Below, one piece after another: positions 406-16,497 of a DNA stretch of 64,000 nucleotides. The translations under genes and the position numbers were made by a program. The notes under the pieces were generated by a model. The model was not told the DNA's origin. It did not search any database and saw nothing but the letters and a program-made list of their open reading frames with translations. The stretch's first letter is position 1; every line of letters begins with the position of its first letter. Source of the DNA: an uncultured archaeon (GTDB lineage Archaea; Aenigmatarchaeota; Aenigmatarchaeia; CG10238-14; SCSR01); NCBI GenBank assembly GCA_964372485.1, contig CAYJQI010000001.1, positions 323,110 to 387,109 on the forward strand, written 5' to 3'.

Positions 406-1653
406 ATGAAAATTTCGATCTTGTCAGATTTACACTTTGGATATTCTTATTCAACCGAACTGGATAATGATTCTTTCGATAATGCAGAAGAAGCTATACA
501 GAAATCACTTGATTCAGATATTATAATTCTTGCTGGTGATATTTTTGATATTCGTGCGCCTAAGACACAAACATGGGGGAAGGCCTTGAAGATATTATCA
601 AAACCACTTCTTCAAGAGAGTTCAGGTGTAAGTCTAGTAGAAACAGACAAGCAACTTAAAGACATATCCAAACGGACTTTGAATCATATTCCTGTCATAT
701 CAATTCACGGTAACCATGAACGTCTCGTTAAAGGTGATGTTAATACAGTTGAAGCTTTGGAGAATGCAGGATTGGTTATTCATCTCCATCTCAATACGAT
801 AATTTTTGAAAAAAATGGAACAAAAGTTGCAATACATGGAATGTCCTCAGTTCCTGAAAGATATGCTAAAGAAGTTCTTGATAGATGGAATCCTAAACCT
901 GTAGAAGGCTGTGTTAACATTCTTTTAATTCATCAAAGTATCGATCCTTACATTTATTCTCCCTTAGAACCACCAAGTATCAGTCTTTCGAACCTTCCAA
1001 AAGGATTTGATTTGATAATCAATGGTCATCTTCACGGACACAACGTAGAAAAGATAGATGACAAAACCACTTTGATAATGCCGGGAAGTACGGTGATAAC
1101 ACAATTTGAAAAAAATGAAGCGGTAACAGAAAAAGTAATTGCGCGAGCCATTATTGAGAATAATGTAGTTATAACGGAATTTGTACCTTTAGAAACAAAT
1201 AGGAAATTCTATTACGAGGAACTCGAACTTCAACAATCATCATTAACAGTGAGAGATCAAGTAGAGAGAAAGTTGGCACAGGTCATAGCGATGGCTGGGA
1301 ATAACAAAAAACCTGTGGTCAGATTACGTCTAAAGGGAAACGAATTTAATGTAATGGACAGCGAACTCAGGAATATAGAAAATAAATTCTCCGATAAGGC
1401 AATTTTGATACTTGTAAAGGAATTGGAATCCCAGGAAATTGCAGAGAAACGAGAACTTTTGAAAAGTTTACGTGAACAAAAGATGTCAATTGAAGAAATG
1501 GGACTTAATTTACTGAATAAAAATCTAGAAGAATTTGGAGCTGAGAAATCTATGGACTATGATACTTTATTCCATCTATTAAGCGATGACCAGACGGATA
1601 GTGTATTGAATATTTTACTTGGCGAACAAGCAACGTTGCAAAGATCATTATGA
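406..1653 (+). CDS. mre11: DNA double-strand-break repair nuclease Mre11.
   Basis: Calcineurin-like phosphoesterase motifs (DLHFG, GDIFD, HGNHE, GHLH). Start of rad50 overlaps its end by 4 nt. Confidence 0.9.
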   Translation: MKISILSDLHFGYSYSTELDNDSFDNAEEAIQKSLDSDIIILAGDIFDIRAPKTQTWGKALKILSKPLLQESSGVSLVETDKQLKDISKRTLNHIPVISIHGNHERLVKGDVNTVEALENAGLVIHLHLNTIIFEKNGTKVAIHGMSSVPERYAKEVLDRWNPKPVEGCVNILLIHQSIDPYIYSPLEPPSISLSNLPKGFDLIINGHLHGHNVEKIDDKTTLIMPGSTVITQFEKNEAVTEKVIARAIIENNVVITEFVPLETNRKFYYEELELQQSSLTVRDQVERKLAQVIAMAGNNKKPVVRLRLKGNEFNVMDSELRNIENKFSDKAILILVKELESQEIAEKRELLKSLREQKMSIEEMGLNLLNKNLEEFGAEKSMDYDTLFHLLSDDQTDSVLNILLGEQATLQRSL

Positions 1654-4016
1654 TTACAAAAGTAATATTGAAGAATTGGAGATCGCATCAGAATTCCACA
1701 TTGGGATTTTCTCCAGGAACTAATGCACTCATTGGAATAATGGGTAGCGGAAAAAGTTCAATATTGAATGCGATTTGTTTTGGTCTCTTTGGCACTAATC
1801 CAGAAATACAATCAAGAAAATTAAAACTAGACGAACTAATAACAAACAAACCAACACCTAAAGATCTTGCTGAAATAGAAGTATTTTTCAAAGTTGATGG
1901 AACTGAATATTCTGTGAAAAGAATAATTGAAAAAAGAAAAGGTACGTCATATTCTGAATTGCGAGTAAATGGGAAATTGCAAGAAGCACCTAGTACACAA
2001 AGAGTCAATGAACTTGTGGAAAAAATAATGAAAGTCGATTATGAACTTTTTAGCAAAGCAATCTATTCCGAACAAAACGCAATGGATTATTTCCTAACTA
2101 TTCCTAAAGGTCAACGAATGAGAAAGATCGATGAATTATTGATGATTGACAAATTTGAAAGGGCAAGAAGTAACACAATTTCATTAATAAACAGAATAAT
2201 AGAAAGAAAATCTGCAATGGAATCGTCACTTACGAATGTTAACATGACTGAACTTCAAAATACGATCGATAATCTAAAATCTTCTGTTGAAAATATTGTT
2301 AATGAGAAAGTTCAAATTGAAAAAAATATAAAACAAATCTCTCTTGAAAGAGCAACCTTGGAAAAGGAACTTCAGACTTTCTATAAAACTAAAGACAATT
2401 TTGATACTTTGAAAAGAGAAGAAATAGCTTTCTCAAGTGCAATCAATGAAATAGCATCTACTCTTAAAAAACTGGAGGAGTCATTAAAGGGAGTGAATGG
2501 GGATGATATAGAGAAAAATATAAAATCATTTTCAGATATTTCAACAAAATTAGAACAAACCTTTGCTGAAAGACAGGAAGAATATCATAAACTTGCAGAG
2601 CAATTTTCTAAAGCTAAAGCTGAAGCAGAAATGTACAAAAGAGAAACAATAAGTCGATTACAAAATGAGCTTGAGGAAAAACTTCAATTACAAAGGGATG
2701 CGAACAAATTCAAGAAGCAGATAGGTGGCAGTGTCGACAAGATAATGGAGGAGAAGAAGAAACTAGTTGAAAAGTACGTTGGTAAAATGGAAGCAATGCG
2801 AATTAAAATTGAGGATGCTACGAACATAATAGATCAATTGTCTTCCATAAAAGCAAAATGTCCAATATGTGAAGCAAAAATTACTGAAGCTAGAAAAATA
2901 ATTTTGATCAAGCAAAAGAAAGTTCAAGTTAAGGATTTGTATGAAGAAATGGAACATGCAGCGAAGCAAAAACAAATGAGTGAACAAGATCTCAAGGATC
3001 TTGAAATGTCGATTGTTAAATTAAATAGAATACTGGACGAAATAGAAAATTTGGATGCTATAAAGTCAAATCTGGAAAATGCTGAACATATATACAAAGT
3101 GTTAGAAGAAAGTTCTTTGAAACTAGAGAAGGAAATAAAAACTACACGAATAGATCTTGAAAAAATGTCGAAAACCCTATCAGAAACACGAAGTGAAAAA
3201 CAAAAGTATGATTTGATATCATTACAAATGAAAGATTATGAAACCAAGAAATCCAGAATAAATGAATTGATTAGACAAAGAGATGAAATAAACCGTCATC
3301 TACAAACTTTGGAAAAATTGGTAACAGGAAAAGAATCATCTTCTTTGGAGACAAGTTTGAGGAATCTTGTAGGTCAAGAAAGAGAACTGATGGCTAAATT
3401 AGCTGCTTTAGACCAAATTTTACTAGAAAGAGAAGTACGATTGAAGGAATTGGATTCTACCTTTACCAAAACTACAAAAGAAAGACAGAATATAAAGAAA
3501 TTCGAGGATTTGTCCGTACAATTAAAGATTTTTGAAAAATCACTCGAACAAACACAGATACAATTACGTCAAGAATTCATAACACTCGTCAATTATTCCA
3601 TGTCTCAATTATGGCAGACGCTTTATCCATATCAGGATTTCACAGGAATACGGTTGAATATTGATGAAGGAGATTATGTTTTGCAACTGCAATCACGAAA
3701 TGAATGGGTAAATGTTGAAGGTATTGCATCAGGTGGTGAGAGAAGTATAGCGGCTTTGACATTGAGGATTGCATTTTCCCTAGTTCTGGCGCCTAACCTT
3801 AGGATGATATTCTTGGACGAGCCTACACATAATCTAGATTCCAATGCCGTTGCTATGCTTTCATCTGTATTAAGGGAAAGAATAAATGAATTCATCGATC
3901 AGACATTTCTAATAACACACCAAAGCGAACTGGAGGAAGCTGTTACAGGCATGGCTTATCGATTGGAAAGAGATAAAGTAAATGATGGATATACTCAGAT
4001 CACACAATTAAATTAG
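1650..4016 (+). CDS. rad50: DNA double-strand-break repair ATPase Rad50.
   Basis: Walker A (GSGKSS), long coiled coil with a CPICEAK zinc hook, ABC signature (SGGERS) and Walker B (IFLDEP). Confidence 0.9.
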   Translation: MITKVILKNWRSHQNSTLGFSPGTNALIGIMGSGKSSILNAICFGLFGTNPEIQSRKLKLDELITNKPTPKDLAEIEVFFKVDGTEYSVKRIIEKRKGTSYSELRVNGKLQEAPSTQRVNELVEKIMKVDYELFSKAIYSEQNAMDYFLTIPKGQRMRKIDELLMIDKFERARSNTISLINRIIERKSAMESSLTNVNMTELQNTIDNLKSSVENIVNEKVQIEKNIKQISLERATLEKELQTFYKTKDNFDTLKREEIAFSSAINEIASTLKKLEESLKGVNGDDIEKNIKSFSDISTKLEQTFAERQEEYHKLAEQFSKAKAEAEMYKRETISRLQNELEEKLQLQRDANKFKKQIGGSVDKIMEEKKKLVEKYVGKMEAMRIKIEDATNIIDQLSSIKAKCPICEAKITEARKIILIKQKKVQVKDLYEEMEHAAKQKQMSEQDLKDLEMSIVKLNRILDEIENLDAIKSNLENAEHIYKVLEESSLKLEKEIKTTRIDLEKMSKTLSETRSEKQKYDLISLQMKDYETKKSRINELIRQRDEINRHLQTLEKLVTGKESSSLETSLRNLVGQERELMAKLAALDQILLEREVRLKELDSTFTKTTKERQNIKKFEDLSVQLKIFEKSLEQTQIQLRQEFITLVNYSMSQLWQTLYPYQDFTGIRLNIDEGDYVLQLQSRNEWVNVEGIASGGERSIAALTLRIAFSLVLAPNLRMIFLDEPTHNLDSNAVAMLSSVLRERINEFIDQTFLITHQSELEEAVTGMAYRLERDKVNDGYTQITQLN

Positions 4017-4048
4017 AATTTTATTACCCGGCAAATCAATTTTATTAT

Positions 4049-4444
4049 ATGAAATCTCAGGTCGCTCTAGAGTATCTTATGGTTATTGGGTTGGCATTGA
4101 TCGTTGTAATACCGTTCTTCTATTATGCATTAACGAATTCATCGGATTCCGTTCTTGTAGCTCAAACTCAGGATGTTGTAGATACTTTAGCAAAAACAAG
4201 TGACTATGTTTATTCTTTAGGTACTGGATCATCTACAAAAATTGAGATAACAATACCTGAAAATATTAAACGCAGTGCTTTGGAAGGTCATCTTATCATA
4301 CTCGAATTGCATACTAGTTCTGGTGTTACAAATGTTACGGCTTCTTCACGTGCAAATTTGATTGGCACTATACCGATAGAATCAGCTACATATTCAATAT
4401 TAGTCAATATGACAGGATCAAATGTGGAAATTAAGAAGGTTTAG
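4049..4444 (+). CDS. Pilin-like protein with a class III (type IV prepilin-like) signal peptide.
   Basis: N-terminus MKSQVALEYL followed by a hydrophobic helix (DUF361-like QxxLEY motif). Lies 32 nt after rad50. Confidence 0.6.
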   Translation: MKSQVALEYLMVIGLALIVVIPFFYYALTNSSDSVLVAQTQDVVDTLAKTSDYVYSLGTGSSTKIEITIPENIKRSALEGHLIILELHTSSGVTNVTASSRANLIGTIPIESATYSILVNMTGSNVEIKKV

Positions 4445-4446
4445 TT

Positions 4447-4860
4447 ATGAAAGGTCAGAGTGGATTTGAAGTCCTTATAGCAATCTCTTTAGTTCTGATA
4501 CTTTTAATTTTTTCCATAATAGCATATGTGACAAAACGCGGGGAGGTGGATTTTACACGAGAACATATAGAAGCACAAACAATTTGTTTTGAAATCAAAA
4601 ATGTGATAAATCAAATATTTTCTGATGGACCTGGTGCGAATTTGCCATTGAATGTTTCCAGTAAATTGGAAGATAATGATTTTAACGTGACTGTTAATTC
4701 TCCTAGCCGATCCATATCCGTTGAATGGAAAGGAAATGTATTTTCATGTACGATGGTCGTTCAAAATGTCACTAACAGTACTTTCAGTAAAATTTTCAAT
4801 ATAAAAAGCGGAACGTCGACTATAAAAAATGTTGAGGGAGTTGTTGTAATTGAACCGTAA
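4447..4860 (+). CDS. Pilin-like protein with a class III signal peptide.
   Basis: MKGQSGFEVL followed by a hydrophobic stretch. KG|Q is a PibD/EppA-type cleavage motif. Confidence 0.65.
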   Translation: MKGQSGFEVLIAISLVLILLIFSIIAYVTKRGEVDFTREHIEAQTICFEIKNVINQIFSDGPGANLPLNVSSKLEDNDFNVTVNSPSRSISVEWKGNVFSCTMVVQNVTNSTFSKIFNIKSGTSTIKNVEGVVVIEP

Positions 4861-5353
4861 AGGACAATTTATCACGACAGAACTTTTGGTAACAATGTCA
4901 ATTATAATATTTTTGTTCATTGTTGCTACATTCATGTGGAATACCATATCGGACAAAATTGTTGAAAACAGGGTAAGAAATGAAGTAAGAACTACTGCTA
5001 TAGATGTTTCCGATCAACTTTTAAAATCTAGTGGTGTCCCATCTGATTGGGAAACAAGGCCAGGTCAAAATTTTTCTATAGGACTAGTGGATAGAGACAA
5101 TAAACTAAACATAAATAAGACTTTGGAATTGAAAAAAATGAATTACCCTTCACTCAAAACTTCGCTAGGTGTATCTGCATATGGATTCTATTTTAAAGTT
5201 ACTGACCTTTTTGGAAATATTTTAAGTTATTCTGGAAATAATCTTGATGCCGGTTTAAAACCAACTTCAAATGCTAGTATGATAGTAAATTCCAAACGCC
5301 TAGCAATATGGAACAACAATATAGTTTCTGTGGATGTGGTATTATGGCTATGA
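4850..5353 (+). CDS. Pilin-like protein with a class III signal peptide.
   Basis: MNRKGQFITTELL followed by a TM helix. Overlaps the upstream gene by 11 nt. Confidence 0.6.
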   Translation: MNRKGQFITTELLVTMSIIIFLFIVATFMWNTISDKIVENRVRNEVRTTAIDVSDQLLKSSGVPSDWETRPGQNFSIGLVDRDNKLNINKTLELKKMNYPSLKTSLGVSAYGFYFKVTDLFGNILSYSGNNLDAGLKPTSNASMIVNSKRLAIWNNNIVSVDVVLWL

Positions 5354-6867
5354 GACATGGATTTGTTTTTAGCTTAGATACAGCTCTGGCAATTACGATT
5401 GCAATATTTTTAATTGCAGGAACTTTTTATTTTCTCAATGCCAATGAATCTGATGCGTTCAGTAGGTTATACATGACAAAATTTGCAAATGATCTTCTGA
5501 TAACCGCCGATAAAAATGGAACACTCGAAACATTGAACACGTCTTTCATAAGGAATATGTTATCCAATACGATCGCATCAAATTTTGCTTCTAAAATTAC
5601 AATCGATTCATATCAATGCTTTAATCAACAATGTCAAAATTTCAGCAAGACAAACACTACCATAATGTTCATTCCAACTGCAAAAATAGATGTTGTGCTT
5701 GTGTTTGACACATCGGGAAGTATGGATGATGATGGTATAGAGCAGTCTCCAGGAGTTTGTTTTAATCAACGGCAACCTATTTGTGATGCAAAAGAAGCTG
5801 CAAAAGGCTTTATTGATTTATTAGATCCTGTCAATGACAGATCTGGATTGGTTGCTTTTAATACTACTGCCATATTATCCAACCCTCTTACATATAATCA
5901 TGTGTCAATTAAAAATGGGTTGACAAACCTTGTTGCAAGTGGTAATACGGCTATAGGGGACGGAATAAATGTTGCAAATCAAGAACTTCAAAGTAACGGA
6001 AGACAAGATTCAAAATATTTTATAATACTTTTAACAGATGGTATGAACAATCAGGGGCTAGAACCGCTCATGGCTACCGACGATTCTGTGGATATTGGAG
6101 TTCCAATTTATACTATAGGATTAGGTGAAGATGTGAATGTAGAGCAACTTCAAACTATTGCAAATACTTCAGGAGGAAAATATTACTTTGCACCTACCAG
6201 TGATCAATTGGAAGGTATCTATAATGAAATAGCTGCGGATATTTTCGGAGAAGCTGATAATTATGTTATTGCACGGAGAAGTTTCCTTACTTTCGACAGT
6301 AATCGAATCAAATATTTCAACATTGCTGAAATACGAATGTGGTTGAGAGATATAATAACAGAGTTCCATCCAAAAAGTGTTTTCTATCATAGTTTTGAAG
6401 ATTTAGGTTGTGAGGGCGAAAATTGTTTCAATACTACGGTTTGGGATCCAATAGAAAGAGGTGGTGATAATAATGAAGCTACAACGCAAGATGCTCGTTC
6501 TTACACTGGCGATTTTTCTGCTGAACTGGAGGAAGGCGATGAAGGAGAAGTTGCACTTACCACTGCGGCAGGGTTAATAAATTTGGCTGGTTATTCGAGC
6601 TGTACTCTAAAACTATATGTTAATTTAGACAGTAACTGGGAAACGACTGATGATATTTTCCTAGACATATACGATGGCAGTTGGCACTATGGGGTTCTAA
6701 AAATAGACGGTGACCTGATCGATGATGATGAATGGCATCGTTTCAAGTTTTCCTTCACTTCACAGAACTATGTCTTCGATAACAATTTCCGATTAAGGAT
6801 AGATCATGAAGCGAGTGATGATAACGAAGAAGCATTTTACGATGATATAAGAATATTATGTTCCTAG
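5344..6867 (+). CDS. vWA (MIDAS) domain protein with a pilin-like N-terminus. Putative pilus adhesin.
   Basis: MAMRHG|FVFSLDTALAITIAI pilin-like N-terminus. vWA motifs DVVLVFDTSGSMDDD and LLTDGMNN. The track start at 5308 is probably an over-extension. Confidence 0.65.
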   Translation: MAMRHGFVFSLDTALAITIAIFLIAGTFYFLNANESDAFSRLYMTKFANDLLITADKNGTLETLNTSFIRNMLSNTIASNFASKITIDSYQCFNQQCQNFSKTNTTIMFIPTAKIDVVLVFDTSGSMDDDGIEQSPGVCFNQRQPICDAKEAAKGFIDLLDPVNDRSGLVAFNTTAILSNPLTYNHVSIKNGLTNLVASGNTAIGDGINVANQELQSNGRQDSKYFIILLTDGMNNQGLEPLMATDDSVDIGVPIYTIGLGEDVNVEQLQTIANTSGGKYYFAPTSDQLEGIYNEIAADIFGEADNYVIARRSFLTFDSNRIKYFNIAEIRMWLRDIITEFHPKSVFYHSFEDLGCEGENCFNTTVWDPIERGGDNNEATTQDARSYTGDFSAELEEGDEGEVALTTAAGLINLAGYSSCTLKLYVNLDSNWETTDDIFLDIYDGSWHYGVLKIDGDLIDDDEWHRFKFSFTSQNYVFDNNFRLRIDHEASDDNEEAFYDDIRILCS

Positions 6868-6900
6868 GATCTAATAATAAGCAAATACAATAAATAATTT

Positions 6901-7830
6901 ATGAAGGGAATTGTTTCTACGTTAATTATATTGTTAATTTTCACTGTATCTTTGTTACTTGCAATAAGCTTTTCATCTAAAACATTGGAACTGGATGATA
7001 TAGTAATACGAAATCTTGTGCTGGATAAGGTTTATAATACATTTATTTCAATAGAACATGCCGTTCAAGAATTGATGCTCTTTGTATCCCCAAATGGTGG
7101 AATTAATGTTACTATATCTGATCAAAATAACTTTACAATAGTTACTTTCAATGAAACATTACCACGATATGTAAACTCTTCTAAATTTAATGAAGATTTG
7201 GAGAACTTTGAAAGATTCGCAGAAACGAAACTAAACGAAACAAATATAGCAGTTGATTTAATTCTTGATGCTAAATGCCTTTCCTTCGTTATTCAACCAT
7301 ACAATATAACATATACACATAATCCTGGGATAGATTGTTTGAGTGTAAGTGCTCATACAGAAGTTGTTGTAGATCCACAATCCAGTTGGCAGTATGTGAA
7401 TGGATACTCGTTTATTTTCAGGCCAAATGGTAATTTATCTGGAGCATCTATTACAGGATGGAGCGGTCCAGGTTGCAATAAGCCAGGGTTAGGACTCAAT
7501 ATAACTATCGCAGGTAAAGATATCACATTAGGTCCTTCTGCGACTACCAGCAATTACAATAGAATGTGTAGATACAATATTGATGATATATCATGCCCGG
7601 CTGGATTAGGCTATATTCACCTTATCCATAATCAAAATTCCGACGTTACCGATAATGGTGTAGTAGATATAGAAATTCATCCTAATTGCAACATTACGTC
7701 GGCAGTGTCATTGAATTTGACTAAAACAACAGGAAAGGTAAGCGTAGAGTCACTTTTCCAAAAAATAAAGATAAAGGAAACCCTATATAGAATAGAAAAG
7801 AATGACACAATCCGGAATATTGGTGGTTAG
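6901..7830 (+). CDS. Secreted, sequon-rich protein with a pilin-like N-terminal TM segment.
   Basis: MKG|IVSTLIILLIF N-terminus, many N-x-S/T sequons and six Cys. Confidence 0.45.
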   Translation: MKGIVSTLIILLIFTVSLLLAISFSSKTLELDDIVIRNLVLDKVYNTFISIEHAVQELMLFVSPNGGINVTISDQNNFTIVTFNETLPRYVNSSKFNEDLENFERFAETKLNETNIAVDLILDAKCLSFVIQPYNITYTHNPGIDCLSVSAHTEVVVDPQSSWQYVNGYSFIFRPNGNLSGASITGWSGPGCNKPGLGLNITIAGKDITLGPSATTSNYNRMCRYNIDDISCPAGLGYIHLIHNQNSDVTDNGVVDIEIHPNCNITSAVSLNLTKTTGKVSVESLFQKIKIKETLYRIEKNDTIRNIGG

Positions 7831-8952
7831 TTGAGAACTATAATGGATATTATAAAAGATCTTTTGAATCGACGTCAAAAGCAAGTTGAAATCACACTTT
7901 CAGAGCCAATAGAACCTCCATCACAACCAATTAGAAAAGTTAAGAGAAGGGTTAAACGGGTTAGAAGAACAAAAGCAAAAATAAAAACTACTCGTACAAA
8001 ATCAGTTGTGAAAATTAAACCACCTCGAATAAGCACCGTTGCACCTGAGAAAGAAATTGAAATACCCAAAATTCAAGTTTCTTCAGTAGAGAAATTGCAA
8101 AAAATTCTAGAACAAAGTGATCTATCAACTTCTCCAAAACAAGAAAGTAATGTAATAAAACCTGCTCAAAAAAGTCGGTTTCATCTTAGTTTTCCATCAT
8201 TTCGAAGAATAAACAAATCTAGCGAACAAAAATTGCGATCACCAATTCCACATAAAACTAAAAAAGAATCATTTGTAACAAAAATTCCTACAGAGCATAT
8301 CACAGAAGCTATTGTTGCCGATGTTATGTCACGAGATGTTAGTTCATTAGAACCGAATGATACAATAAGTTACGCGATCAGATTATTTTCAGATAGAAAA
8401 ATAAGTGGTGCCCCAGTGGTGAAAGGTACCAATTTGGTAGGTATGTTGGTTGAATCTGATATAATAAAACTCATAGGAAGCAAGGAACTTTTATTAGGTC
8501 AGGGAAAGGGACTGAAATCTCTCGGGGAGATTAAAGTGGAAGGTGTTATGCATAGAAATCCAATTACTGTGCGTGAGTATACAAAATTATCTGAAGTAGC
8601 GGATTTGATGAATAAATACGGAATCACACAAATACCAGTTTTAGATGAGCGACGAGAATTAACTGGAGTTTTATCACGTAGCGATATAATGCGTGCAGTC
8701 TCCAAGAAATTATTATTCAAGTTATTACAAAAACACGAAGTACAGGAGGTTATGAAAGTAGATACGGATATTGATGAGATTCTTCAAATTGTTGAAAGGA
8801 GAGGATCGATCGGGATGGATGAAATTCAGAAAAGATTAACAATACCTGAAGACAAAATTGAAGAATGGGGTAAGATTCTAGAAAGACATAACTTGATTGA
8901 GATGTTCTATCCCCCTATTGGAAAGCCAGAATTTAGGAAGAAGATATCATGA
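7831..8952 (+). CDS. CBS-pair domain protein with a basic low-complexity N-terminus and a winged-helix-like C-terminus. Putative regulator.
   Basis: K/R-rich repeats (RKVKRRVKRVRRTKAK), two CBS-like modules (VMSRDV ... GAPVV ... GVMHRNPITV ... IPVLD). Its stop overlaps the ATPase start. Confidence 0.7.
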   Translation: MRTIMDIIKDLLNRRQKQVEITLSEPIEPPSQPIRKVKRRVKRVRRTKAKIKTTRTKSVVKIKPPRISTVAPEKEIEIPKIQVSSVEKLQKILEQSDLSTSPKQESNVIKPAQKSRFHLSFPSFRRINKSSEQKLRSPIPHKTKKESFVTKIPTEHITEAIVADVMSRDVSSLEPNDTISYAIRLFSDRKISGAPVVKGTNLVGMLVESDIIKLIGSKELLLGQGKGLKSLGEIKVEGVMHRNPITVREYTKLSEVADLMNKYGITQIPVLDERRELTGVLSRSDIMRAVSKKLLFKLLQKHEVQEVMKVDTDIDEILQIVERRGSIGMDEIQKRLTIPEDKIEEWGKILERHNLIEMFYPPIGKPEFRKKIS

Positions 8953-10481
8953 AGGAAAATGAAGTAATTGCAAAATATTTTATAGAGGGGTATAAGGTTA
9001 AAGCAGAAGTTAGTGTTGAACGAACTATAAAGGAATTTGTTCCATTATATGTTTTGAAACTCCCCGAGATACAGCCAGCCACTTTGGCTTTGATGGATCA
9101 GATAAGAGAAAAGATTTTAGCACAAGCTGCAATTAAGACGACAGAATTATTAGAACCAAAAGCTTTCGAAGACCTCAAAGTAAAATTTTATGAAAGGGCT
9201 TATGAATTAGTTAGCAGAGAATTGGCAAATGAAACTCAAAACGTGTGGCAGTTTCTTGCTGGTATGCTTGTTTATGAGATGTTGGGTTTAGGTAGATTGG
9301 AACTTTTAATTGCTGATGGGGAACTTGAGGATATTGTAATCAACAATGCAGAAGATCCGATATGGGTATATCATAGAAAACATGGATGGCTTAAAACCAA
9401 TGTTGTAGTCCCCTCAGAATCACAAATTCAAAATTATGCTGCAACAATCGGACGAAGAGTTGGTAGACAAATAACTACACTGGCTCCATTGATGGATGCT
9501 CACATGACGACAGGTGATAGGGTTAATGCCACGTTATTCCCTATCAGTACTTCTGGAAATACGATAAGCATACGAAAATTCAGGAGAAAACCATGGGTAA
9601 TTACCGAACTTTTAGAAAGCAACACATTGTCTTTGGATATAGCCGCTTTATTGTGGTTGGCGATTCAGTATGAAAGTAATGTGATTTTCTCAGGTGGAAC
9701 AGGGTCTGGTAAAACAACTTTTCTAAATGTTCTGATGCCATTTATCCCGCCAAATCAAAGAATACTCAGCATAGAAGATACACGAGAGATTCAATTACCA
9801 AGATTCTTGCACTGGGTTCCATTAACAACTAGAGAACCAAACCCTGAGGGTAAAGGTGGAGTTTCAATGTTGGACCTTCTTGTGAATAGCTTGCGTATGA
9901 GGCCAGATAGAATCGTTGTCGGTGAGATTAGAAGAGGTGAACAGGCAGAGGTTTTGTTTGAAGCAATGCATACAGGTCACAGTGTTTATGCAACACTTCA
10001 CGCAGATACAGCAGAGCAAACTTATCGAAGATTGATTAATCCACCAATTAATGTTCCGCAGACATTGTTAGAAGCATTGCATCTTATTGCGGTTGCCTTC
10101 AGAGATAGAAGAAAAGGTATACGTAGAATTTTCCAAATAGCTGAAATTGTTCCGGTAACAAAATGGGAAGAGTACAGTCCACATATTAACGTTTTGTACA
10201 AATGGAATCCTGCAGACGATATAATTAAAAAAGTTAAAGAAAGTGTGCGAGTTTTAGATGAATTGAAACTGCATACAGGAATGACTGATCAAGAATTCCA
10301 AAAGGATTTGATAGAAAAAGCATCCATCTTAAAATGGATGAAGGATAAGAAAATCAATACAGTCGATGGTGTAGGAAAAGTAGTTGTTGAATATTATTTT
10401 GACCCCGATAAAGTTTTGAGTGTTGTTAAAAAGAATGAGAATCCGACAACGCTTGTTCCACCGGCACTGCTTCAGGTGTGA
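8949..10481 (+). CDS. Type IV pilus / secretion ATPase, FlaI/TadA/VirB11 family.
   Basis: Walker A FSGGTGSGKTTFLNV, followed by IEDTREIQL and His-box-like motifs. Confidence 0.85.
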   Translation: MKENEVIAKYFIEGYKVKAEVSVERTIKEFVPLYVLKLPEIQPATLALMDQIREKILAQAAIKTTELLEPKAFEDLKVKFYERAYELVSRELANETQNVWQFLAGMLVYEMLGLGRLELLIADGELEDIVINNAEDPIWVYHRKHGWLKTNVVVPSESQIQNYAATIGRRVGRQITTLAPLMDAHMTTGDRVNATLFPISTSGNTISIRKFRRKPWVITELLESNTLSLDIAALLWLAIQYESNVIFSGGTGSGKTTFLNVLMPFIPPNQRILSIEDTREIQLPRFLHWVPLTTREPNPEGKGGVSMLDLLVNSLRMRPDRIVVGEIRRGEQAEVLFEAMHTGHSVYATLHADTAEQTYRRLINPPINVPQTLLEALHLIAVAFRDRRKGIRRIFQIAEIVPVTKWEEYSPHINVLYKWNPADDIIKKVKESVRVLDELKLHTGMTDQEFQKDLIEKASILKWMKDKKINTVDGVGKVVVEYYFDPDKVLSVVKKNENPTTLVPPALLQV

Positions 10482-11386
10482 ATATGCCTCAACGCCGTAT
10501 ACCATTTGTACTTTTTTCCACTAATAGAATTTTAAATTATTCAAGGAGCCTTGGATTATTTGGTATAGGTAATCGAATTTCAAAATTATTTCCATTCCTT
10601 TCACTTTACTTGTATCAATCAGAATCAACTCATGACGCAGGTGAATATGTTTCTATCGCCCTTTTTTCTGCTATTACATGGTTTATAATTCCATTCTCAT
10701 TCGGAATGTTTCTTTCATTAGTAGCGACACTTCCTTCTAATTTTCCTTTAATTATTACAGCGGTCTCTTTTGCAATGTTTGGATTATCATTTTTGTATAT
10801 AATTTTTTATCCCAGAGTATTTGTTACAAGAAGAACTCGTGAGTTGGAGAAGAATTTGCTATTCGCATTAAGACATTTGATGATTCAGGCAAAATCTGGT
10901 ATACCTCTTTTTGATTCGATGGCATCTGTCGCACGCGCAAATTATGGTTTGGTATCCAAAGAATTCAATGAAGTTGTTCGAAGGATCAGTACAGGAGTAA
11001 GAGATGTAGAGGCGTTGGAAGAATTGGCTTTGAAAAATCCATCATTATACTTCCGACGAGCTCTTTGGCAAGTGTCAAATGCAATTCGAGTCGGAGCTGA
11101 TATAGGAAACACATTGGAAATTATCATACAAAATCTTGCGAATGAACAAAGAATACTTGTAAGAAAATACGGTTCACAACTTAATCCTCTTGCATTTCTT
11201 TACATGATGTTTGGTGTAATAATGCCAAGTTTAGGCATAGCATTGTTGATAATATTATCATCTTTCGCAGGATTGCCAATTAAAAAATATTTCTTCTGGG
11301 CGATTTTGGGATTTCTGGTTATTTTCAAGTTTAACTTTCTTGGAATAGTCAAAAGCAGAAGACCATCGGTGGAAGTTTATGTATAG
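10478..11386 (+). CDS. Pilus platform membrane protein, first half (TadB/FlaJ-like T2SSF domain).
   Basis: Polytopic membrane protein with one T2SSF-like domain. Overlaps the ATPase gene by 4 nt. Confidence 0.7.
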   Translation: MNMPQRRIPFVLFSTNRILNYSRSLGLFGIGNRISKLFPFLSLYLYQSESTHDAGEYVSIALFSAITWFIIPFSFGMFLSLVATLPSNFPLIITAVSFAMFGLSFLYIIFYPRVFVTRRTRELEKNLLFALRHLMIQAKSGIPLFDSMASVARANYGLVSKEFNEVVRRISTGVRDVEALEELALKNPSLYFRRALWQVSNAIRVGADIGNTLEIIIQNLANEQRILVRKYGSQLNPLAFLYMMFGVIMPSLGIALLIILSSFAGLPIKKYFFWAILGFLVIFKFNFLGIVKSRRPSVEVYV

Positions 11387-12362
11387 ATTCTTTTATGCAC
11401 TCAGCCCTGTGAAATACAGGAAGTGGGTTACACAACAACTCAACTATTGTGATTTTTCAGTATCGCCAATAAAATTAATTGGTTTCTTGATAATTTTTGG
11501 TCTGATGGCAGGATTTGCTGCAGGTTTACTTTTGTACGGATTTGGGATTGTCGGATTAATTGGTTTTCTTATTACTTGGATAGCGGTGTTGATGGGTTTT
11601 GAAATATTGAGTCATCTCACTTTGATTTTCGTTGCAGATGGCAGAGCAAATTTCGTAGAACAGATTTTACCGGATGCACTACAGATAGTTTCTGCAAATA
11701 TGCGTTCAGGATTGACTCCAGATAAGGCAATTTTGACATCGGCACGACCGGAATTTGGTCCACTTGAGAAAGAATTGAGAAAAGCAGCAAAGGAGACTTT
11801 ATCGGGTAAATCTTTCGAAGATGCGTTGAAAGGGGTTACTGCAAAAATTAAATCAAAAAGTTTAGATAAGACAATTGCACTTGTTGTTGAAGGATTATCG
11901 AAAGGCGGAAGCATAACAAGTCTATTGGATAGCGTGGCAGATGATATAAGACAGGCTCGAGTGCTCAGAAATGAAATAAAATCATATGTCATGATGTATG
12001 GAATATTTATTTTCTTTGCAGCTGGTGTCGGAGGACCTTTGCTTTACTCTGTTGCAACGTATTTGATACAAACAATGACAACTATTGGGGGCTCTGTTGA
12101 TTTGGGAGATTCTTTGACACAATCTTCAATACCATTGCTTAAATTTGGATCGGCTGAGATAGATGTGGATTTCTTACGAACGTATTCCTATATTGCTATA
12201 GTAGTGACAGCATTTTTTGGTAGTTTGTTGATAGGACTGGTTCAGGAAGGCACTGAAAAAGGTGGTTTGAAGTTTTTCCCGATTCTTCTAGTTGTTGGAT
12301 TGGGCGTTTTTACAGTAACTCAGATCGCTCTAAAAGGTATTTTTGGTACACTTGCGGGATAG
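11379..12362 (+). CDS. Pilus platform membrane protein, second half (TadC/FlaJ-like T2SSF domain).
   Basis: Second T2SSF-like domain with TM helices. Overlaps the previous gene by 8 nt in a different frame. Confidence 0.7.
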   Translation: MYRFFYALSPVKYRKWVTQQLNYCDFSVSPIKLIGFLIIFGLMAGFAAGLLLYGFGIVGLIGFLITWIAVLMGFEILSHLTLIFVADGRANFVEQILPDALQIVSANMRSGLTPDKAILTSARPEFGPLEKELRKAAKETLSGKSFEDALKGVTAKIKSKSLDKTIALVVEGLSKGGSITSLLDSVADDIRQARVLRNEIKSYVMMYGIFIFFAAGVGGPLLYSVATYLIQTMTTIGGSVDLGDSLTQSSIPLLKFGSAEIDVDFLRTYSYIAIVVTAFFGSLLIGLVQEGTEKGGLKFFPILLVVGLGVFTVTQIALKGIFGTLAG

Positions 12363-12388
12363 TGCTTTATAAGGCAGGAAAACGAAAT

Positions 12389-12874
12389 ATGAGTTATATG
12401 TTTAAAATAGTACGAAAAGGCCAAACGGCTTTGGAATACTTGATGACTTACGGGTGGGCTATATTGATAGTAATCATTGCTATCGGTGCCCTTTACGCTT
12501 TAGGACTTACAAAACCATGTAGATGGACAGGAACACAAATAACAGGATTCACAGGTGGTGGATTCGAAGCATCTGTTCCGAGATTTAGTGGAGGTGGCGA
12601 CGATCTAGTATTGGACTTCAAAAGAATCGGAGCCAATTCAGTAAATTTCTATCACGCAAATGCAACGTACAAGACAGCACATATCGACTTGAACTCAACT
12701 GAACCTAATGCGATATTGGCGACAGGCGCAACAAAAACAGTCACATTTGATTTCAATCCTCCAGAAGATTCATCATCCGGTGACTGCTATGCAGTTGATA
12801 TAATACTAGGCTACAGCGAAAGTGGAAGAAATTTCACAGCAGCAGGTCGAGTTAGCGGAACAATTGAAACTTAA
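12389..12874 (+). CDS. Pilin with a class III signal peptide.
   Basis: MSYMFKIVRKG|QTALEYLMTYGWAILIV. The track start at 12362 is a GTG extension. Confidence 0.65.
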   Translation: MSYMFKIVRKGQTALEYLMTYGWAILIVIIAIGALYALGLTKPCRWTGTQITGFTGGGFEASVPRFSGGGDDLVLDFKRIGANSVNFYHANATYKTAHIDLNSTEPNAILATGATKTVTFDFNPPEDSSSGDCYAVDIILGYSESGRNFTAAGRVSGTIET

Positions 12875-12875
12875 A

Positions 12876-14378
12876 TCACATAAAAGTCTCTAAATCAGTA
12901 GCACTAAGATTAGAATCAGCGAAACCCAAAAGTTCGTCTTCAAGATTTTTTCCTTTCCCAATTATTTTACTTTTTCTTTCTCTTACATTAACCAAAATAG
13001 GGTAGTTCACAGCTTCTCCAACAATAAATGCTTCACCAACTTTTAATCCTGGAATTGAACTTAATATACCGCTTGTAATTCCTTCTGAACTTTCTTTTAT
13101 ATGATCGAGGTCGTACGGGTTAGTTACACGCATAATGATGTCGGTATTGCATTGTGAAAGTGCGGTTGTAGCTAATCCGGCAGGTCTTTGTGTTATCAAT
13201 GTTAAACAAGCATTAAACTTTCTACCTTCACGAGCTATTTGTTCGATTATACTTCTAGATAATGCAAGATCATGTTCTTCGCCTTCCGGTGCGAATTGAT
13301 GCGCCTCTTCTACAAATAAAACGAATGGAGATATTTTCTTTTGTCGTCTCGCTTCGAATAATTTCCATGCAAAGTAAGCAACAATTATTTGTTTTCTTTT
13401 AATGTCCACAATATCCGACAAATCAAAAATACTTAGATTTCCTTTGAATGCAAGATCCTTTATCGAAGGATAGTCTCTGTTGGAAAATAATCCTGTATAT
13501 TCAATTTCATGCAACCAAGATGCCAGAACTTCTTTTGTATTGTCTTTAATCTCACTTTTCAATACTGCATCAATAAGATCTTGCATGTTGTATGTAGGTT
13601 TTTCTTCCCTGAGTTTTCTAATCACAGGTCCAAGTTCTCTTCTTTGAACAGCAGAAATTTTTGGCTGTAAAACTGAAAGTTGATATGCAGACAAACTATT
13701 CGTCGATATACTGATTTCATTTGCATTGTAAACTTTGGTGGATAATCTATACTTTTCATCCTGCGCAAATCCACTATATTCACCATGCGGATCCACAATA
13801 ATTACAGACGGCCTTGCATTTCTTTCTCTGTTAAGAAGTTCTTCCAATAAAACTGAAGTTAAATATGATTTTCCTGCACCGGACATTGCAAGTATGGCTA
13901 GATGTTTTTGGAATAGTTTTGTAATATTAATTTTAGCATCGATATTATGAAATTCAACTTTACCAAGATTCAATCCAGAATTAACATCCAATCCCAAAGC
14001 ATTGTTCAATAAAGTTTCATCAATTGGAAATACATCATTCCCAGGTGATGGGGGAAATGTTACTCGTTTTTGCATTCCATTAGAGAAAATTCCTAAAGGA
14101 CGCGCCTGAGCAATTAAATATTCCCATCTATCAACAGGAAATTGATCGATGAGAGGTTTGCCTGAACGTTCAAATTCACTCACAGATTCTGCACGTTGAT
14201 AATAACGGTTGGTTTTTATAATATCTTCCACTCGAGCAACTAGAACTCCATCTTGAGTGTCCAATTGAATAAATTCACCTTTCCTTACAGGCACACCTTT
14301 ATTCTCATTTAGAACGAACCAGAATTCCGTACTGTTTGGGCCTAGCTCAGATGAAATAACTGTGCCAATCTCTCGCAT
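12876..14378 (-). CDS. herA: HerA-like (DUF87) FtsK-superfamily ATPase.
   Basis: N-terminal barrel, Walker A MSGAGKS, IVDPHGEY, Walker B VEEAHQF and a QRPAGL C-terminus. Convergent with the last pilin gene. Confidence 0.75.
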   Translation of the reverse strand: MREIGTVISSELGPNSTEFWFVLNENKGVPVRKGEFIQLDTQDGVLVARVEDIIKTNRYYQRAESVSEFERSGKPLIDQFPVDRWEYLIAQARPLGIFSNGMQKRVTFPPSPGNDVFPIDETLLNNALGLDVNSGLNLGKVEFHNIDAKINITKLFQKHLAILAMSGAGKSYLTSVLLEELLNRERNARPSVIIVDPHGEYSGFAQDEKYRLSTKVYNANEISISTNSLSAYQLSVLQPKISAVQRRELGPVIRKLREEKPTYNMQDLIDAVLKSEIKDNTKEVLASWLHEIEYTGLFSNRDYPSIKDLAFKGNLSIFDLSDIVDIKRKQIIVAYFAWKLFEARRQKKISPFVLFVEEAHQFAPEGEEHDLALSRSIIEQIAREGRKFNACLTLITQRPAGLATTALSQCNTDIIMRVTNPYDLDHIKESSEGITSGILSSIPGLKVGEAFIVGEAVNYPILVNVRERKSKIIGKGKNLEDELLGFADSNLSATDLETFM

Positions 14379-14410
14379 AGTTTTTAAGTTGAATGTAAAA
14401 AGATAAATGT

Positions 14411-15169
14411 ATGGTCATCAAGTTTATCACGAACTACCCAGCGGCTTTAATTACGGATAAGAAGATTCTTGTAATCTCTGATATCCACATAGGACTAGAA
14501 TCGGAACTTGGAAGTGCTGGAGTAAGAATTCATAAGCAAATAGAAAAATTCCAGGAAATCCTTTACAAATTGATCGAATTAACAGATGCAAAAACTTTGG
14601 TAATTTTGGGAGATGTTAAACACAAAGTTCCTGGAGCAACGATGCAAGAATTGAGAGATATACCTAAATTCCTACAAAATCTTTCTTCAAAAGTAAAAGT
14701 TATTATAACAAAAGGAAATCATGACGATTATTTGGAAACAATGGTACCAACTGGAGTTAAAATATACGGGAGCAAAGGATTCAAAATTGGAAAATATGGA
14801 TTTTTTCATGGTCATGCAAAACCTGGTAAGACTCTTCTAAAATGTGATCAACTTTTCATAGGTCATTTGCAGCCTTCAGTGGAATTTAGAGATGGTTTTG
14901 GATATGCTACCCGTCAACAAGTGTGGTTGAAAGGTAAATTAAATCCCGACGTTGTAAAAAAGTTGTACAAAACCAAATCAACTGGAAAAATGAATATAAT
15001 AATTGTTCCTTCTTTCAATTCCATGATCGGAAGTATGAATGTTATATCAACCGAAGATCTGTTAGGACCATTATTAGTGAATGAGATGGTTCAATTGGAT
15101 ACAATGCGTACATATCTTCTTGATGGGACGTATTTGGGATTGTTGAGTTCAATAAAAGAACAAATTTAA
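14411..15169 (+). CDS. Calcineurin-like metallophosphoesterase (Mre11/SbcD-like fold).
   Basis: Motifs SDIHIG, GDVKH, GNHDD and GH. Divergent from herA across a 32-nt gap. Confidence 0.7.
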   Translation: MVIKFITNYPAALITDKKILVISDIHIGLESELGSAGVRIHKQIEKFQEILYKLIELTDAKTLVILGDVKHKVPGATMQELRDIPKFLQNLSSKVKVIITKGNHDDYLETMVPTGVKIYGSKGFKIGKYGFFHGHAKPGKTLLKCDQLFIGHLQPSVEFRDGFGYATRQQVWLKGKLNPDVVKKLYKTKSTGKMNIIIVPSFNSMIGSMNVISTEDLLGPLLVNEMVQLDTMRTYLLDGTYLGLLSSIKEQI

Positions 15170-15183
15170 ACGATAAAACACAA

Positions 15184-16497
15184 ATGGATAGTATGAAATC
15201 TACCTTTTTTGTGTCTTTAGTATTGGTAGTGATGAGTGCATCGATTGTGGGTTTTGCACATGCAGACGAGACTGGTTCAAAAACAGGCACTCTTCGAGAT
15301 TTTGCACAAAAGATAGAACAACTAACTCCAGAACAACAACAAAGGTTGCGAGAATTGACATTGGAGAAAACAAGAAATCTAGGCGAATTAAATACACCTA
15401 CTCTTGAAAAGGTTTCACAACTCAATCCAGATGAATTGGAAAAATTGACTTTATTGGGAAAAAGTAGATTGAATGAACTATCAGCTCTTGACAGGGAGAT
15501 GCTTAAAAAAAGATTGGAAAATATAACTATTGAAAGAGTGACGAAAGAACGATTGTTGGAGAAACGAGATATTCTGCAAGGAAAAATAGAGGAAGCACGA
15601 GAAAAAGTAGATGAGTTGAAGGATAGAATAAAAGATCTGAGATCTGAAATAAATGAGAGCAAGAAAGATCTTCAAGAAATACGAGATGAGTTAAAATCAT
15701 GTAAAAATTCGACTTCTGTAGAATGTAATGAAACGAAATCTAGGGCATTAGAGCACGGAAAGAAAGTAGTTCTTAGAAATATTGATCTTGCAATAGATCA
15801 CCTCAATAAAATCAAAGCTCACATTGAAGGAAATGATGACATTGATGAAACTACAGCGAATGAAGCTATAGCAGATATAGATGCCGCGATTGCAGAACTT
15901 GAAGCCTTGAAACCTAAAGTAGAAGGTGCAACTACACTTGCAGAGTTGCGTGATTTAGCTAAACAAGTAAAAGCTGTTTGGAAAAGAATTGAACATCGCG
16001 CCAGATTACACGCTGCAAATTCAATACTTTCTGATGTAGGAGAAATTTTGAGCAGAGCACGACATCTTGAAAGAAAATTGGAAAGAGTACTTGCCTTCGC
16101 AGACAAACACGGAGTTGATGTTTCTGATTTGAACGGTTCAATTAATGATTTTTCTGATAAAGTAGAGTCAGCACGAGTTAAGATAGAAGAATCTAAATCA
16201 AAATTCAAAGAAGCCAAGGAATTGCGAAATGCATCGAGAGCAGATGGTAATATAACGGACGACGAGTCGTCACAAATTAAATCATTATTGAACGAATCTC
16301 GTGTATTATCAAGGGAAGCACATCAATTGCTGAAAGATGCACACGTTATTTTGAAATCCATCTCTGCAAGTATTCGAGAAAGAATAACAGTGGAAACAGA
16401 AGTTGAAATAAAAGAAGAAGAACTCGTTAATGTGGAAGTTGATTTGAATGCTGAGGTGGGTGAACCAGAAGCAGTAGAAATAAATGAGGGATCATAA
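15184..16497 (+). CDS. Secreted coiled-coil protein.
   Basis: Signal peptide MKSTFFVSLVLVVMSASIVGFAHA. The rest is E/K/L-rich heptad-like sequence. Confidence 0.5.
   Translation: MDSMKSTFFVSLVLVVMSASIVGFAHADETGSKTGTLRDFAQKIEQLTPEQQQRLRELTLEKTRNLGELNTPTLEKVSQLNPDELEKLTLLGKSRLNELSALDREMLKKRLENITIERVTKERLLEKRDILQGKIEEAREKVDELKDRIKDLRSEINESKKDLQEIRDELKSCKNSTSVECNETKSRALEHGKKVVLRNIDLAIDHLNKIKAHIEGNDDIDETTANEAIADIDAAIAELEALKPKVEGATTLAELRDLAKQVKAVWKRIEHRARLHAANSILSDVGEILSRARHLERKLERVLAFADKHGVDVSDLNGSINDFSDKVESARVKIEESKSKFKEAKELRNASRADGNITDDESSQIKSLLNESRVLSREAHQLLKDAHVILKSISASIRERITVETEVEIKEEELVNVEVDLNAEVGEPEAVEINEGS

Follow-up and report, generated by a model that had tools for sequence, protein, structure and literature searches.

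What does a CBS-domain protein do whose gene lies directly in front of the motor gene of an archaeal type IV pilus? The question is raised by an open reading frame (ORF) in a window of 64,000 nucleotides (nt) from an uncultured archaeon of the Aenigmatarchaeota (GCA_964372485.1, contig CAYJQI010000001.1, positions 323,110 to 387,109). It runs on the + strand from 7831 (TTG) to 8952 (TGA), encodes 373 amino acids (aa) and had been described in an initial annotation as a CBS-domain protein, possibly a nucleotide-sensing regulator of pilus assembly or a DNA-binding component. However, we find that the CBS domain is not the functionally linked part and that it is a predicted C-terminal winged-helix (wH) domain which accompanies the pilus ATPase. 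We refer to the gene as the wH gene and to its product as the window protein; its parts and the ATPase gene that follows are listed here.

7831..8952, + strand: whole gene, encoding an amphipathic helix, a basic disordered region, a CBS pair and a wH (ORF, homologues)
7831..7878, + strand: N-terminal amphipathic helix (aa 1-16; MxxI[LM][DE][IW][IL][KR]xx[FL]), conserved in about 20 homologues
7879..8307, + strand: K/R-rich and P/S/T/Q-rich region, predicted to be disordered (aa 17-159; 24% K/R, net charge +21, isoelectric point (pI) 10.7)
8308..8685, + strand: CBS pair or Bateman module, aa ~160-285 (Pfam PF00571, AlphaFold2 model, Foldseek, PDB sequence match)
8686..8751, + strand: connecting helix and short flexible linker, aa ~286-307 (AlphaFold2 model)
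8752..8949, + strand: C-terminal winged-helix domain, aa 308-373 (AlphaFold2 model, Foldseek, profile search, conservation table)
8949..8952, + strand: ATGA stop/start overlap with the ATPase gene (sequence)
8949..10481, + strand: FlaI/TadA-superfamily secretion ATPase, 510 aa (Pfam T2SSE, E 8.9e-37)

The winged-helix family and its pairing with a pilus ATPase

Wherever a locus extended far enough downstream (57 of 57), the gene immediately 3' of the wH gene on the same strand encodes a T2SSE ATPase. The initial annotation had proposed to look for homologues beside FlaI-like ATPases, and every informative locus bears this neighbourhood out for FlaI/TadA-like enzymes. The loci were retrieved by the wH protein or domain alone, not by the ATPase; the 57 consist of 55 loci plus L064 and L065, which encode bare wH proteins of 87 and 111 aa. 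Forty-four of the loci scored, all metagenomic, were found with the wH of a subfamily carrying transmembrane (TM) helices (alignment A7, the diverse alignment A6 being too variable), and this A7-based sample is biased to wH+TM and short CBS types, not to ATPase adjacency. Six loci lack an ATPase gene, and in every one of them the contig ends at most 362 nt from the wH gene. All contigs retrieved as L001-L009 carry a homologue directly 5' of the ATPase gene, often with a 4-nt overlap and in differing chromosomal contexts. The same position is taken by the wH genes of L010, L014 and L016-L019, most of which overlap the ATPase gene. After removal of wH domains at least 90% identical, 42 non-redundant pairs remained (13 CBS+wH, 8 basic tail or other+wH, 20 wH+TM, 1 TM+wH). 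The two genes overlap in 36 of them (spacing -155 to +109 nt), and the partner ATPases share 47-79% identity with the window ATPase. Pairing is kept when the wH is joined to a coiled coil, when the protein consists of a zinc ribbon and wH (L014) or of little more than a bare wH of 79-114 aa, and also where platform genes are not adjacent (L007, L025, L034). TM-type loci form a three-gene operon among housekeeping genes, with a pilin-like protein of ~400 aa, a wH protein with two TM helices and the ATPase. The distance matrices of wH and ATPase correlate with a Mantel r of 0.87 (maximum 0.36 in 2000 permutations), which fits co-inheritance and possibly co-evolution without separating the two, since shared ancestry gives the same result.

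The limits of the gene itself agree with those given previously. With TTG 7831 as start the protein begins with MRTIMDIIKDLL, matching the N-termini of aligned homologues residue for residue (e.g. MPTILEVIRDFF, MPNILEIIRNFF). Because of this alignment and a GGTGG placed 4 nt 5' of the TTG, which directly abuts the stop codon of the preceding gene, TTG 7831 is a better start than ATG 7843. The latter begins the database protein P0001 (369 aa, identical in sequence), so that the public annotation is probably short by 4 aa at the N-terminus. The ORF is not a chance one, given about 28 close homologues (E down to 1e-146, 38-75% identity) with CBS pair and wH and with N-terminal regions of very different length; the names on them are Candidatus Aenigmarchaeota/Aenigmatarchaeota. 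At the 3' end, the stop codon (TGA 8950-8952) overlaps the ATPase start codon (ATG 8949-8951), as had been noted, and the -4 nt overlap recurs in homologous loci. This arrangement suggests that the wH gene is translationally coupled to the ATPase gene.

The resemblance of the C-terminus to a winged helix, also pointed out initially, is supported by structure prediction. We modelled aa 151-373 with AlphaFold2 as a monomer with 25 homologues as input (mean predicted local distance difference test score, pLDDT, 83.8). The model has the topology H-S-H-H-S-S over aa ~313-370 (pLDDT ~84-90), and the wH modelled alone reached 83.7. Foldseek aligned the predicted domain with PapI, MarR, Z-alpha, TFE and RPC34 at query-normalised TM-scores of 0.6-0.74. 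The domain is the best-conserved stretch of the protein in the homologue alignment, with the motif ETDIDxxLxxVxxxGxI...KIEEWGKILExHxLIxxxYPPxGxP. T5, D8, W39 and Y53 are invariant across 152 wH representatives; L43, E44, P54 and G57 are conserved in at least 96% (P54 98%, G57 98%), E37 in 92% and E38 in 88%. Acidic residues account for 46%, 46%, 94% and 90% at helix 3 positions 33, 34, 37 and 38, the exposure of this helix being taken from helix periodicity, not from coordinates. The pI of the wH of the window protein is 5.4.

An exhaustive hidden Markov model (HMM) search with the 66-residue wH profile matched 2127 cluster representatives at an E-value cut-off of 1e-3, of which 611 remained at 1e-10, with the window protein (P0001) as top match at 125.3 bits. 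The size of the family was seen by this search; word-indexed searches with wH profiles returned few short proteins. Among the ~152 best representatives, 24 (~16%) carry a CBS pair, 20 have one or two TM helices after the wH, 24 have one to five TM helices before it and 84 have neither. Pfam matches among 141 representatives are almost solely to CBS (17 members), and named members are called 'hypothetical protein' from Aenigmarchaeota or Woesearchaeota. Relatives without a CBS pair include a 114-aa protein of basic tail and wH (P0039, L010), a 169-aa protein of basic region, zinc ribbon and wH (L014), proteins of 281-298 aa from Woesearchaeota with a helical region, a K/E-rich disordered region and the wH (L016, L018), and versions of 160 aa and 140 aa (L017, L019). 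The CBS pair is optional, and the C-terminal wH is the constant element that defines the family. As a working definition we take a winged helix of the form ETDxD…IEEW…ILEEH…YPxxGxP whose gene stands right before that of a FlaI/TadA-like ATPase, and the window protein agrees with it.

Searches of Pfam and NCBIfam gave nothing significant for the wH and N-terminal segments, and no model in them covers the wH. No curated DNA-binding helix-turn-helix (HTH) family in these databases matched the wH above its cut-off (DUF4423 E 0.017, HTH_28 and MarR below threshold), and a profile search of the PDB with the wH gave nothing significant either (best IclR, E 0.017). The family is not mentioned in two surveys of archaeal type IV filaments (PMC4858521 and 10.64898/2026.04.22.720090; text and keyword search, which is not proof of novelty) and appears undescribed so far.

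The CBS pair and the basic N-terminal region

The CBS pair predicted initially is readily detected by Pfam (PF00571, two stretches, 100.6 bits versus a cut-off of 24, E 5.7e-29). Most of it is modelled with pLDDT >90 in the predicted standard CBS pair fold (beta-alpha-beta-beta-alpha, twice). Foldseek matched it to 2ef7, 2p9m and 3kpb at E ~1e-13, with target-normalised TM-scores of 0.75-0.9 for ST2348, MJ0922 and MJ0100; CBSX2 is a structural match as well, and the closest PDB sequence is MJ1225 (E 1.1e-21). Each half contains a ribose-phosphate motif of the type G-h-h-[ST]-x-x-D, namely GMLVESD (family consensus G-x-I-S-E-S-D) and GVLSRSD. The Asp of the first motif is invariant in the alignment and that of the second is present in at least 90% of homologues. 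Overall, this is a canonical CBS pair and an ordinary member of its superfamily. Structures of MJ1225 and MJ0100 are those of adenosine-ligand-binding CBS pairs, and the conserved motifs of the window protein would fit binding of an adenosine ligand as in these two. The more specific suggestion of c-di-AMP sensing is not supported: the NCBIfam model of the c-di-AMP receptor CbpB/DarB (NF041630) scored 45.7 bits versus a cut-off of 125 and covered one CBS motif. The linker that follows consists in the AlphaFold2 model of a helix at model residues 133-155 and a low-confidence stretch at 153-161.

CBS input seems to have been recruited repeatedly in this family, because CBS pairs occur with two separate ATPase sub-clusters and because L065 has a separate HTH_3/XRE+CBS gene (4205-4762). 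The latter lies two genes upstream of the bare 111-aa wH-ATPase pair, and a SAM synthetase gene adjoins.

The initial annotation spoke of a lysine/arginine-rich tail and of a low-complexity, basic stretch of roughly 160 aa at the start. Basic it is (aa 1-160: 24% K/R, net charge +23, pI 10.9), but the region is N-terminal, a head rather than a tail, and its complexity is only moderately low. The densest run, aa 29-75, has 38% K/R and a pI of 12. Pfam has no match to the basic region, which varies in length and sequence among the aligned homologues and is conserved only in composition. The amphipathic helix in front of it has a hydrophobic moment of ~0.5, calculated for five family members. Two further observations concern this part of the protein. 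Homologues of 500-550 aa (P0006, P0007, P0009, P0012, P0023; L002 8001-9641) carry a coiled-coil-like insertion of ~200 aa at the boundary between basic region and CBS pair, which starts with a weak HTH-like motif (…ELAAAFNLSTATLQEIYNKV…; HTH_10 E 0.013). Short [LMI]PK[IFL] repeats occur in the basic regions of P0018, P0024, P0008 and P0023 (alignment A1, columns ~300-400; e.g. KISMPKISLPKISMPKK, HLPRIHLPKITLPKL) and could be a linear motif or mere compositional bias.

Docking subunit or DNA-binding regulator: possible roles

That the protein is a regulator or partner of pilus assembly is reasonable, because a CBS pair is detected and because of the invariable ATPase neighbour. The explanation we favour, at moderate probability, is that of a subunit close to the membrane which docks the ATPase and in which the CBS pair would gate or tune the pilus motor by the adenine-nucleotide state. 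The protein would be a cytoplasmic partner of the assembly ATPase of an Epd/Tad-like type IV pilus in a DPANN archaeon, and the wH would dock onto the FlaI/TadA-like ATPase encoded by the overlapping downstream gene. The amphipathic helix and the polybasic disordered region would keep the complex attached to the inner, anionic membrane surface, an anchoring that TM helices would take over in related proteins. As an added sensor and dimerisation module, the CBS pair would bind an adenosine-containing ligand (AMP, ADP, ATP or S-adenosylmethionine (SAM)); the signal could pass via the connecting helix and alter the engagement of the ATPase by the wH, and pilus assembly would then track the energy or nucleotide state of the cell. 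The sequences show the domain architecture, the family and the unvarying gene pair; contact with the ATPase, the binding of a ligand, the tether to the membrane and the sense in which assembly is regulated are what we infer here.

A docking role is favoured because the wH has an acidic, highly conserved face, matches no HTH family above threshold and is encoded by a gene that invariably abuts the ATPase gene; judged from the alignment, its conservation pattern looks like a fixed protein interface. Since TM helices stand beside the wH in about 29% of the top representatives, the family may work at the membrane, and basic residues flanking these helices suggest that the wH is on the cytoplasmic side. 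For the window protein, the amphipathic helix and the polybasic region could replace such a TM anchor. The bare wH-ATPase pair of L065, encoded beside a separate and canonical HTH_3+CBS regulator, also speaks for this explanation.

Several points weigh against it. The predicted fold of the wH is generic and its nearest structural matches are mostly DNA-binding proteins, while its weak sub-threshold profile matches are all to HTH families (IclR, Lrp, MarR, HTH_28). The end of helix 3, 'ILEEHxLI', is like the 'LEExGLI' typical of DNA-binding winged HTH regulators. We gave this likeness no weight; if it is taken into account, only E37, E38 and W39 are unusual in helix 3. A regulator encoded in the operon should likewise show gene adjacency and co-divergence, and a polybasic disordered region can attach to nucleic acid just as well as to lipids. 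A membrane-anchored HTH transcription factor, ArnR, takes part in archaeal pilus regulation (PMC6396743).

The main rival explanation is a one-component transcription factor, in which the CBS pair would sense a metabolite, the wH would bind the promoter of the pilus operon and the basic region would add non-specific DNA affinity, with the TM relatives being ArnR-like. A sensor joined to a winged HTH is the standard architecture of such regulators, the structural neighbours of the wH are the winged helices of MarR, PapI, ROK and TFE, and the weak HTH-family matches would fit as well. JGI names P0027 a 'predicted transcriptional regulator' and P0072 a DtxR-family regulator, the homologues of more than 500 aa contain the additional weak HTH-like motif (P0006 aa 98-131), and there are precedents in ArnR and ArnR1, which join an HTH to two TM helices at the C-terminus and bind type IV pilus promoters (PMC6396743). 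CBS+HTH regulators such as CcpN are a precedent too. Nevertheless, we consider this explanation rather unlikely. Apart from the lack of above-cut-off matches to curated DNA-binding HTH families, the wH is acidic overall in the window protein and near-invariantly so across the family in the N-terminal half of helix 3. This helix is also the most conserved segment from Aenigmarchaeota to Woesearchaeota, which is unusual for operator-reading helices. The wH gene is never found at the operon edge or divergently oriented and abuts the ATPase gene even where pilins and platform are encoded elsewhere, and L065 has its own canonical HTH_3+CBS gene beside the separate wH. DNA-binding winged helices read the major groove with the first half of helix 3. 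At this place the wH has K-I-E-E-W, and judged from sequence alone canonical DNA binding appears disfavoured by the near-invariant Glu-Glu-Trp at the would-be DNA-facing positions. Of the two roles considered initially, that of a regulator of pilus assembly is reasonable and that of a DNA-binding component in the canonical sense appears less likely.

DNA could also be handled in another manner, as part of a pilus for DNA uptake or exchange, with the polybasic region and perhaps the wH binding DNA at the cytoplasmic face near the ATPase. The highly basic N-terminal region and the position of the pilus operon between mre11-rad50 and herA in the window, L001 and L002 would suit such a role. Epd-type pilus genes are needed for natural transformation of Methanococcus maripaludis (PMC10133366), and Ups pili of Sulfolobales support DNA exchange for repair (10.64898/2026.04.22.720090). 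But repair genes are not neighbours in general (L004, L006, L008 and L009 are in other contexts), the basic region is missing from many members of the family or TM helices or a CBS pair only are present, the conserved surface of the wH is acidic and the operon has no recognisable DNA-translocation component, all of which makes this role very improbable. Somewhat less remote, but still quite unlikely in our opinion, is a passive scaffold or assembly chaperone of the ATPase that receives no signal and in which the CBS pair only dimerises and the basic region is a solubility or spacer element. CBS pairs commonly dimerise, the 84 of 152 representatives mentioned above have no recognisable sensor domain and bare proteins of 79-114 aa suffice in many loci. 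On the other hand, the ribose-binding Asp and Ser/Thr are preserved family-wide in the two CBS motifs, which suggests that ligand binding is retained, and the recurrence of CBS with two ATPase sub-clusters and as a separate gene in L065 suggests recurrent selection for input.

Among known systems, the window protein shares the canonical Bateman module and the conserved ribose-phosphate motifs with MJ1225/gamma-AMPK-like and MJ0100-type CBS proteins, which, however, have neither a polybasic region nor the wH sandwich nor a link to a pilus ATPase gene. CcpN-type regulators (NCBIfam TransRegCcpNBacil) likewise combine a CBS pair with an HTH-type domain, but in the opposite order, and the window protein reaches only 20.3 bits versus a cut-off of 260 with this model, over the CBS region only. 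Membrane-anchored cytoplasmic partners of a secretion ATPase are known from the bacterial type II secretion system (GspL/EpsL) and from the crenarchaeal archaellum (ArlX). The role proposed here for the wH protein is the same, that of a small cytoplasmic domain docking the hexameric ATPase at the membrane near the platform, and the wH+TM relatives have just this topology; their folds are unrelated (actin-like or coiled coil) and there is no sequence similarity. The genes of TadZ (bacterial Tad pili) and UpsX (Sulfolobus Ups pili) are directly upstream of the pilus ATPase gene and thus in the same operon position as the wH gene. Neither TadZ, an ATPase of ParA/MinD type, nor UpsX, a large uncharacterised protein, has this wH or a CBS pair. 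A gene resembling that of TadZ (ParA/MinD-like, AAA_31/CbiA) heads the pilus operon in L004 (3747-4652) and L009 (3802-4827) and is absent from the window locus. Pfam and NCBIfam searches, in which only CBS-containing models matched, detected no homology of the window protein to TadZ/ParA-like, ArlH/KaiC-like, ArlCDE or ArlX proteins, the last of which is mentioned in 10.64898/2026.04.22.720090.

ArnR and ArnR1 of Sulfolobus acidocaldarius are membrane-bound one-component regulators of archaellum and pili; ArnR begins with an HTH, which is followed by a HAMP domain and a sensor, and it binds promoters (PMC6396743). Both have in common with the wH family the tie to type IV filament systems and with its TM-type members the two C-terminal TM helices next to an HTH-type domain. 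Unlike ArnR, the window protein lacks both TM helices and a HAMP domain and carries its wH, in which helix 3 is acidic, at the C-terminus; its gene abuts the ATPase gene. It was rejected as an ArnR family member, the wH+2TM layout being shared only by its TM-type relatives. CBS genes have been noted near archaeal type IV filament loci of subsystems 4B and 4F in Thermoproteus and Halobacteria (10.64898/2026.04.22.720090). These are unrelated and mentioned as neighbours only, and text searches found neither a wH partner of the ATPase nor a system-1-like case from DPANN described in the two surveys (10.64898/2026.04.22.720090, PMC4858521).

The pilus operon and its possible role in DPANN archaea

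The wH gene is the seventh in a tightly packed operon of 11 genes on the + strand, which encodes an Epd/Tad-like type IV pilus; the G+C content of the window is 35%. The remaining features of the operon are as follows.

4017..4048, + strand: AT-rich spacer of 32 nt after rad50 with TATA-like AATTTTATTA twice, 21 nt apart (sequence)
4049..7830, + strand: five upstream pilin-like genes (4049-4444, 4447-4860, 4850-5353, 5308-6867, 6901-7830) with class III signal-peptide-like N-termini
10478..11386, + strand: platform protein, first TadB/TadC-like half (Pfam T2SSF, E 2.3e-16)
11379..12362, + strand: platform protein, second TadB/TadC-like half (Pfam T2SSF, E 1.9e-15)
12362..12874, + strand: pilin-like protein with class III signal peptide (…RKGQ, then TALEYLMTYGWAILIVII; translation, motif also in the L014 pilin)

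With its two half-size platform genes the operon corresponds to the Epd/Tad-like 'system 1' or to a DPANN form of subsystem 4A; both layouts of archaeal type IV filaments are described in 10.64898/2026.04.22.720090. The window ATPase scored 279.9 bits with the NCBIfam model FlaI and 206.8 bits with TadA, both under cut-off. A second T2SSE-like ORF in the window (23968-25791, - strand, 607 aa) was rejected as a partner; it is a PIN-ATPase-KH (PINA-like) protein and has no wH neighbour. The order of the upstream pilin-like genes is alike in L001, L002, L004, L006, L008 and L009, and BLASTP detected no homology among these genes across locus types. The product of 5308-6867 (519 aa) combines a pilin-like N-terminus with a VWA domain (E 5.6e-20) and is probably a tip adhesin; larger VWA proteins are encoded at the matching position in L006 and L010. 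One copy of AATTTTATTA is conserved at the same place in L001 (~5275-5320) and L002 (~5325-5340), and from its sequence this element probably serves as TATA box for a pilus operon whose leader is short or absent. A scan for sigma-70 promoters and terminators showed no enrichment, and such a scan is not meaningful for an archaeon.

In the region 406-16497 the operon is flanked by mre11 (406-1653) and rad50 (1650-4016) on one side and by herA (12876-14378, - strand) and a Metallophos gene (14411-15169) on the other. L001 and L002 share the mre11-rad50/herA arrangement, whereas the pilus loci of L004, L006, L008 and L009 are elsewhere. This setting may reflect a link of the pilus to DNA repair or exchange, or a lineage-specific insertion. 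L001 additionally carries genes for an HNH endonuclease, an N6/N4 DNA methyltransferase and a MazE-like antitoxin between pilus locus and herA (12844-14397), an insert that may be a small mobile or defence island. Genes of KaiC/RecA-like ATPases lie near some wH-ATPase loci (L064 680-2594 and 11633-12264; L002 13054-13758, - strand; L017 29-670). L064 also has V4R and DUF7504 genes, and the clustering recalls the ArlH/KaiC-type regulation of archaella.

DPANN archaea have ultra-small cells and for the most part depend on a host, to which they may well attach by type IV pili, the foremost candidates for this task. The pilus type served by the wH family probably has this function. Outside the archaellum with ArlH, ArlX and ArlCDE, almost nothing is, to our knowledge, established about the cytoplasmic control of archaeal pilus motors. 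The wH family goes together with a single ATPase clade in all loci studied and offers a concrete, testable candidate for such a regulator or adaptor. Neither Pfam nor NCBIfam detects it, its members being annotated solely as 'hypothetical' or 'CBS domain-containing', and its profile is a useful marker for annotating pilus loci. The evidence for the gene pairing is strong, and we class the wH protein as a probable accessory or regulatory component of type IV filament machinery; the mechanistic steps are proposals. Going further, we tentatively consider it possible that the wH is an unrecognised, near-obligate motor subunit of DPANN Epd/Tad-like pili with interchangeable anchors (TM hairpin, multiple TM helices, or amphipathic helix and polybasic tail) and interchangeable inputs (CBS pair, zinc ribbon or coiled coil), in which case the CBS version of the window would be an energy-state 'clutch', with which an obligate symbiont would put out host-attachment pili only at permissive adenine-nucleotide levels. 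If the CBS version works as proposed, it would link pilus assembly to the nucleotide or energy status of the cell, a plausible need in organisms that derive nucleotides and probably energy from their hosts.

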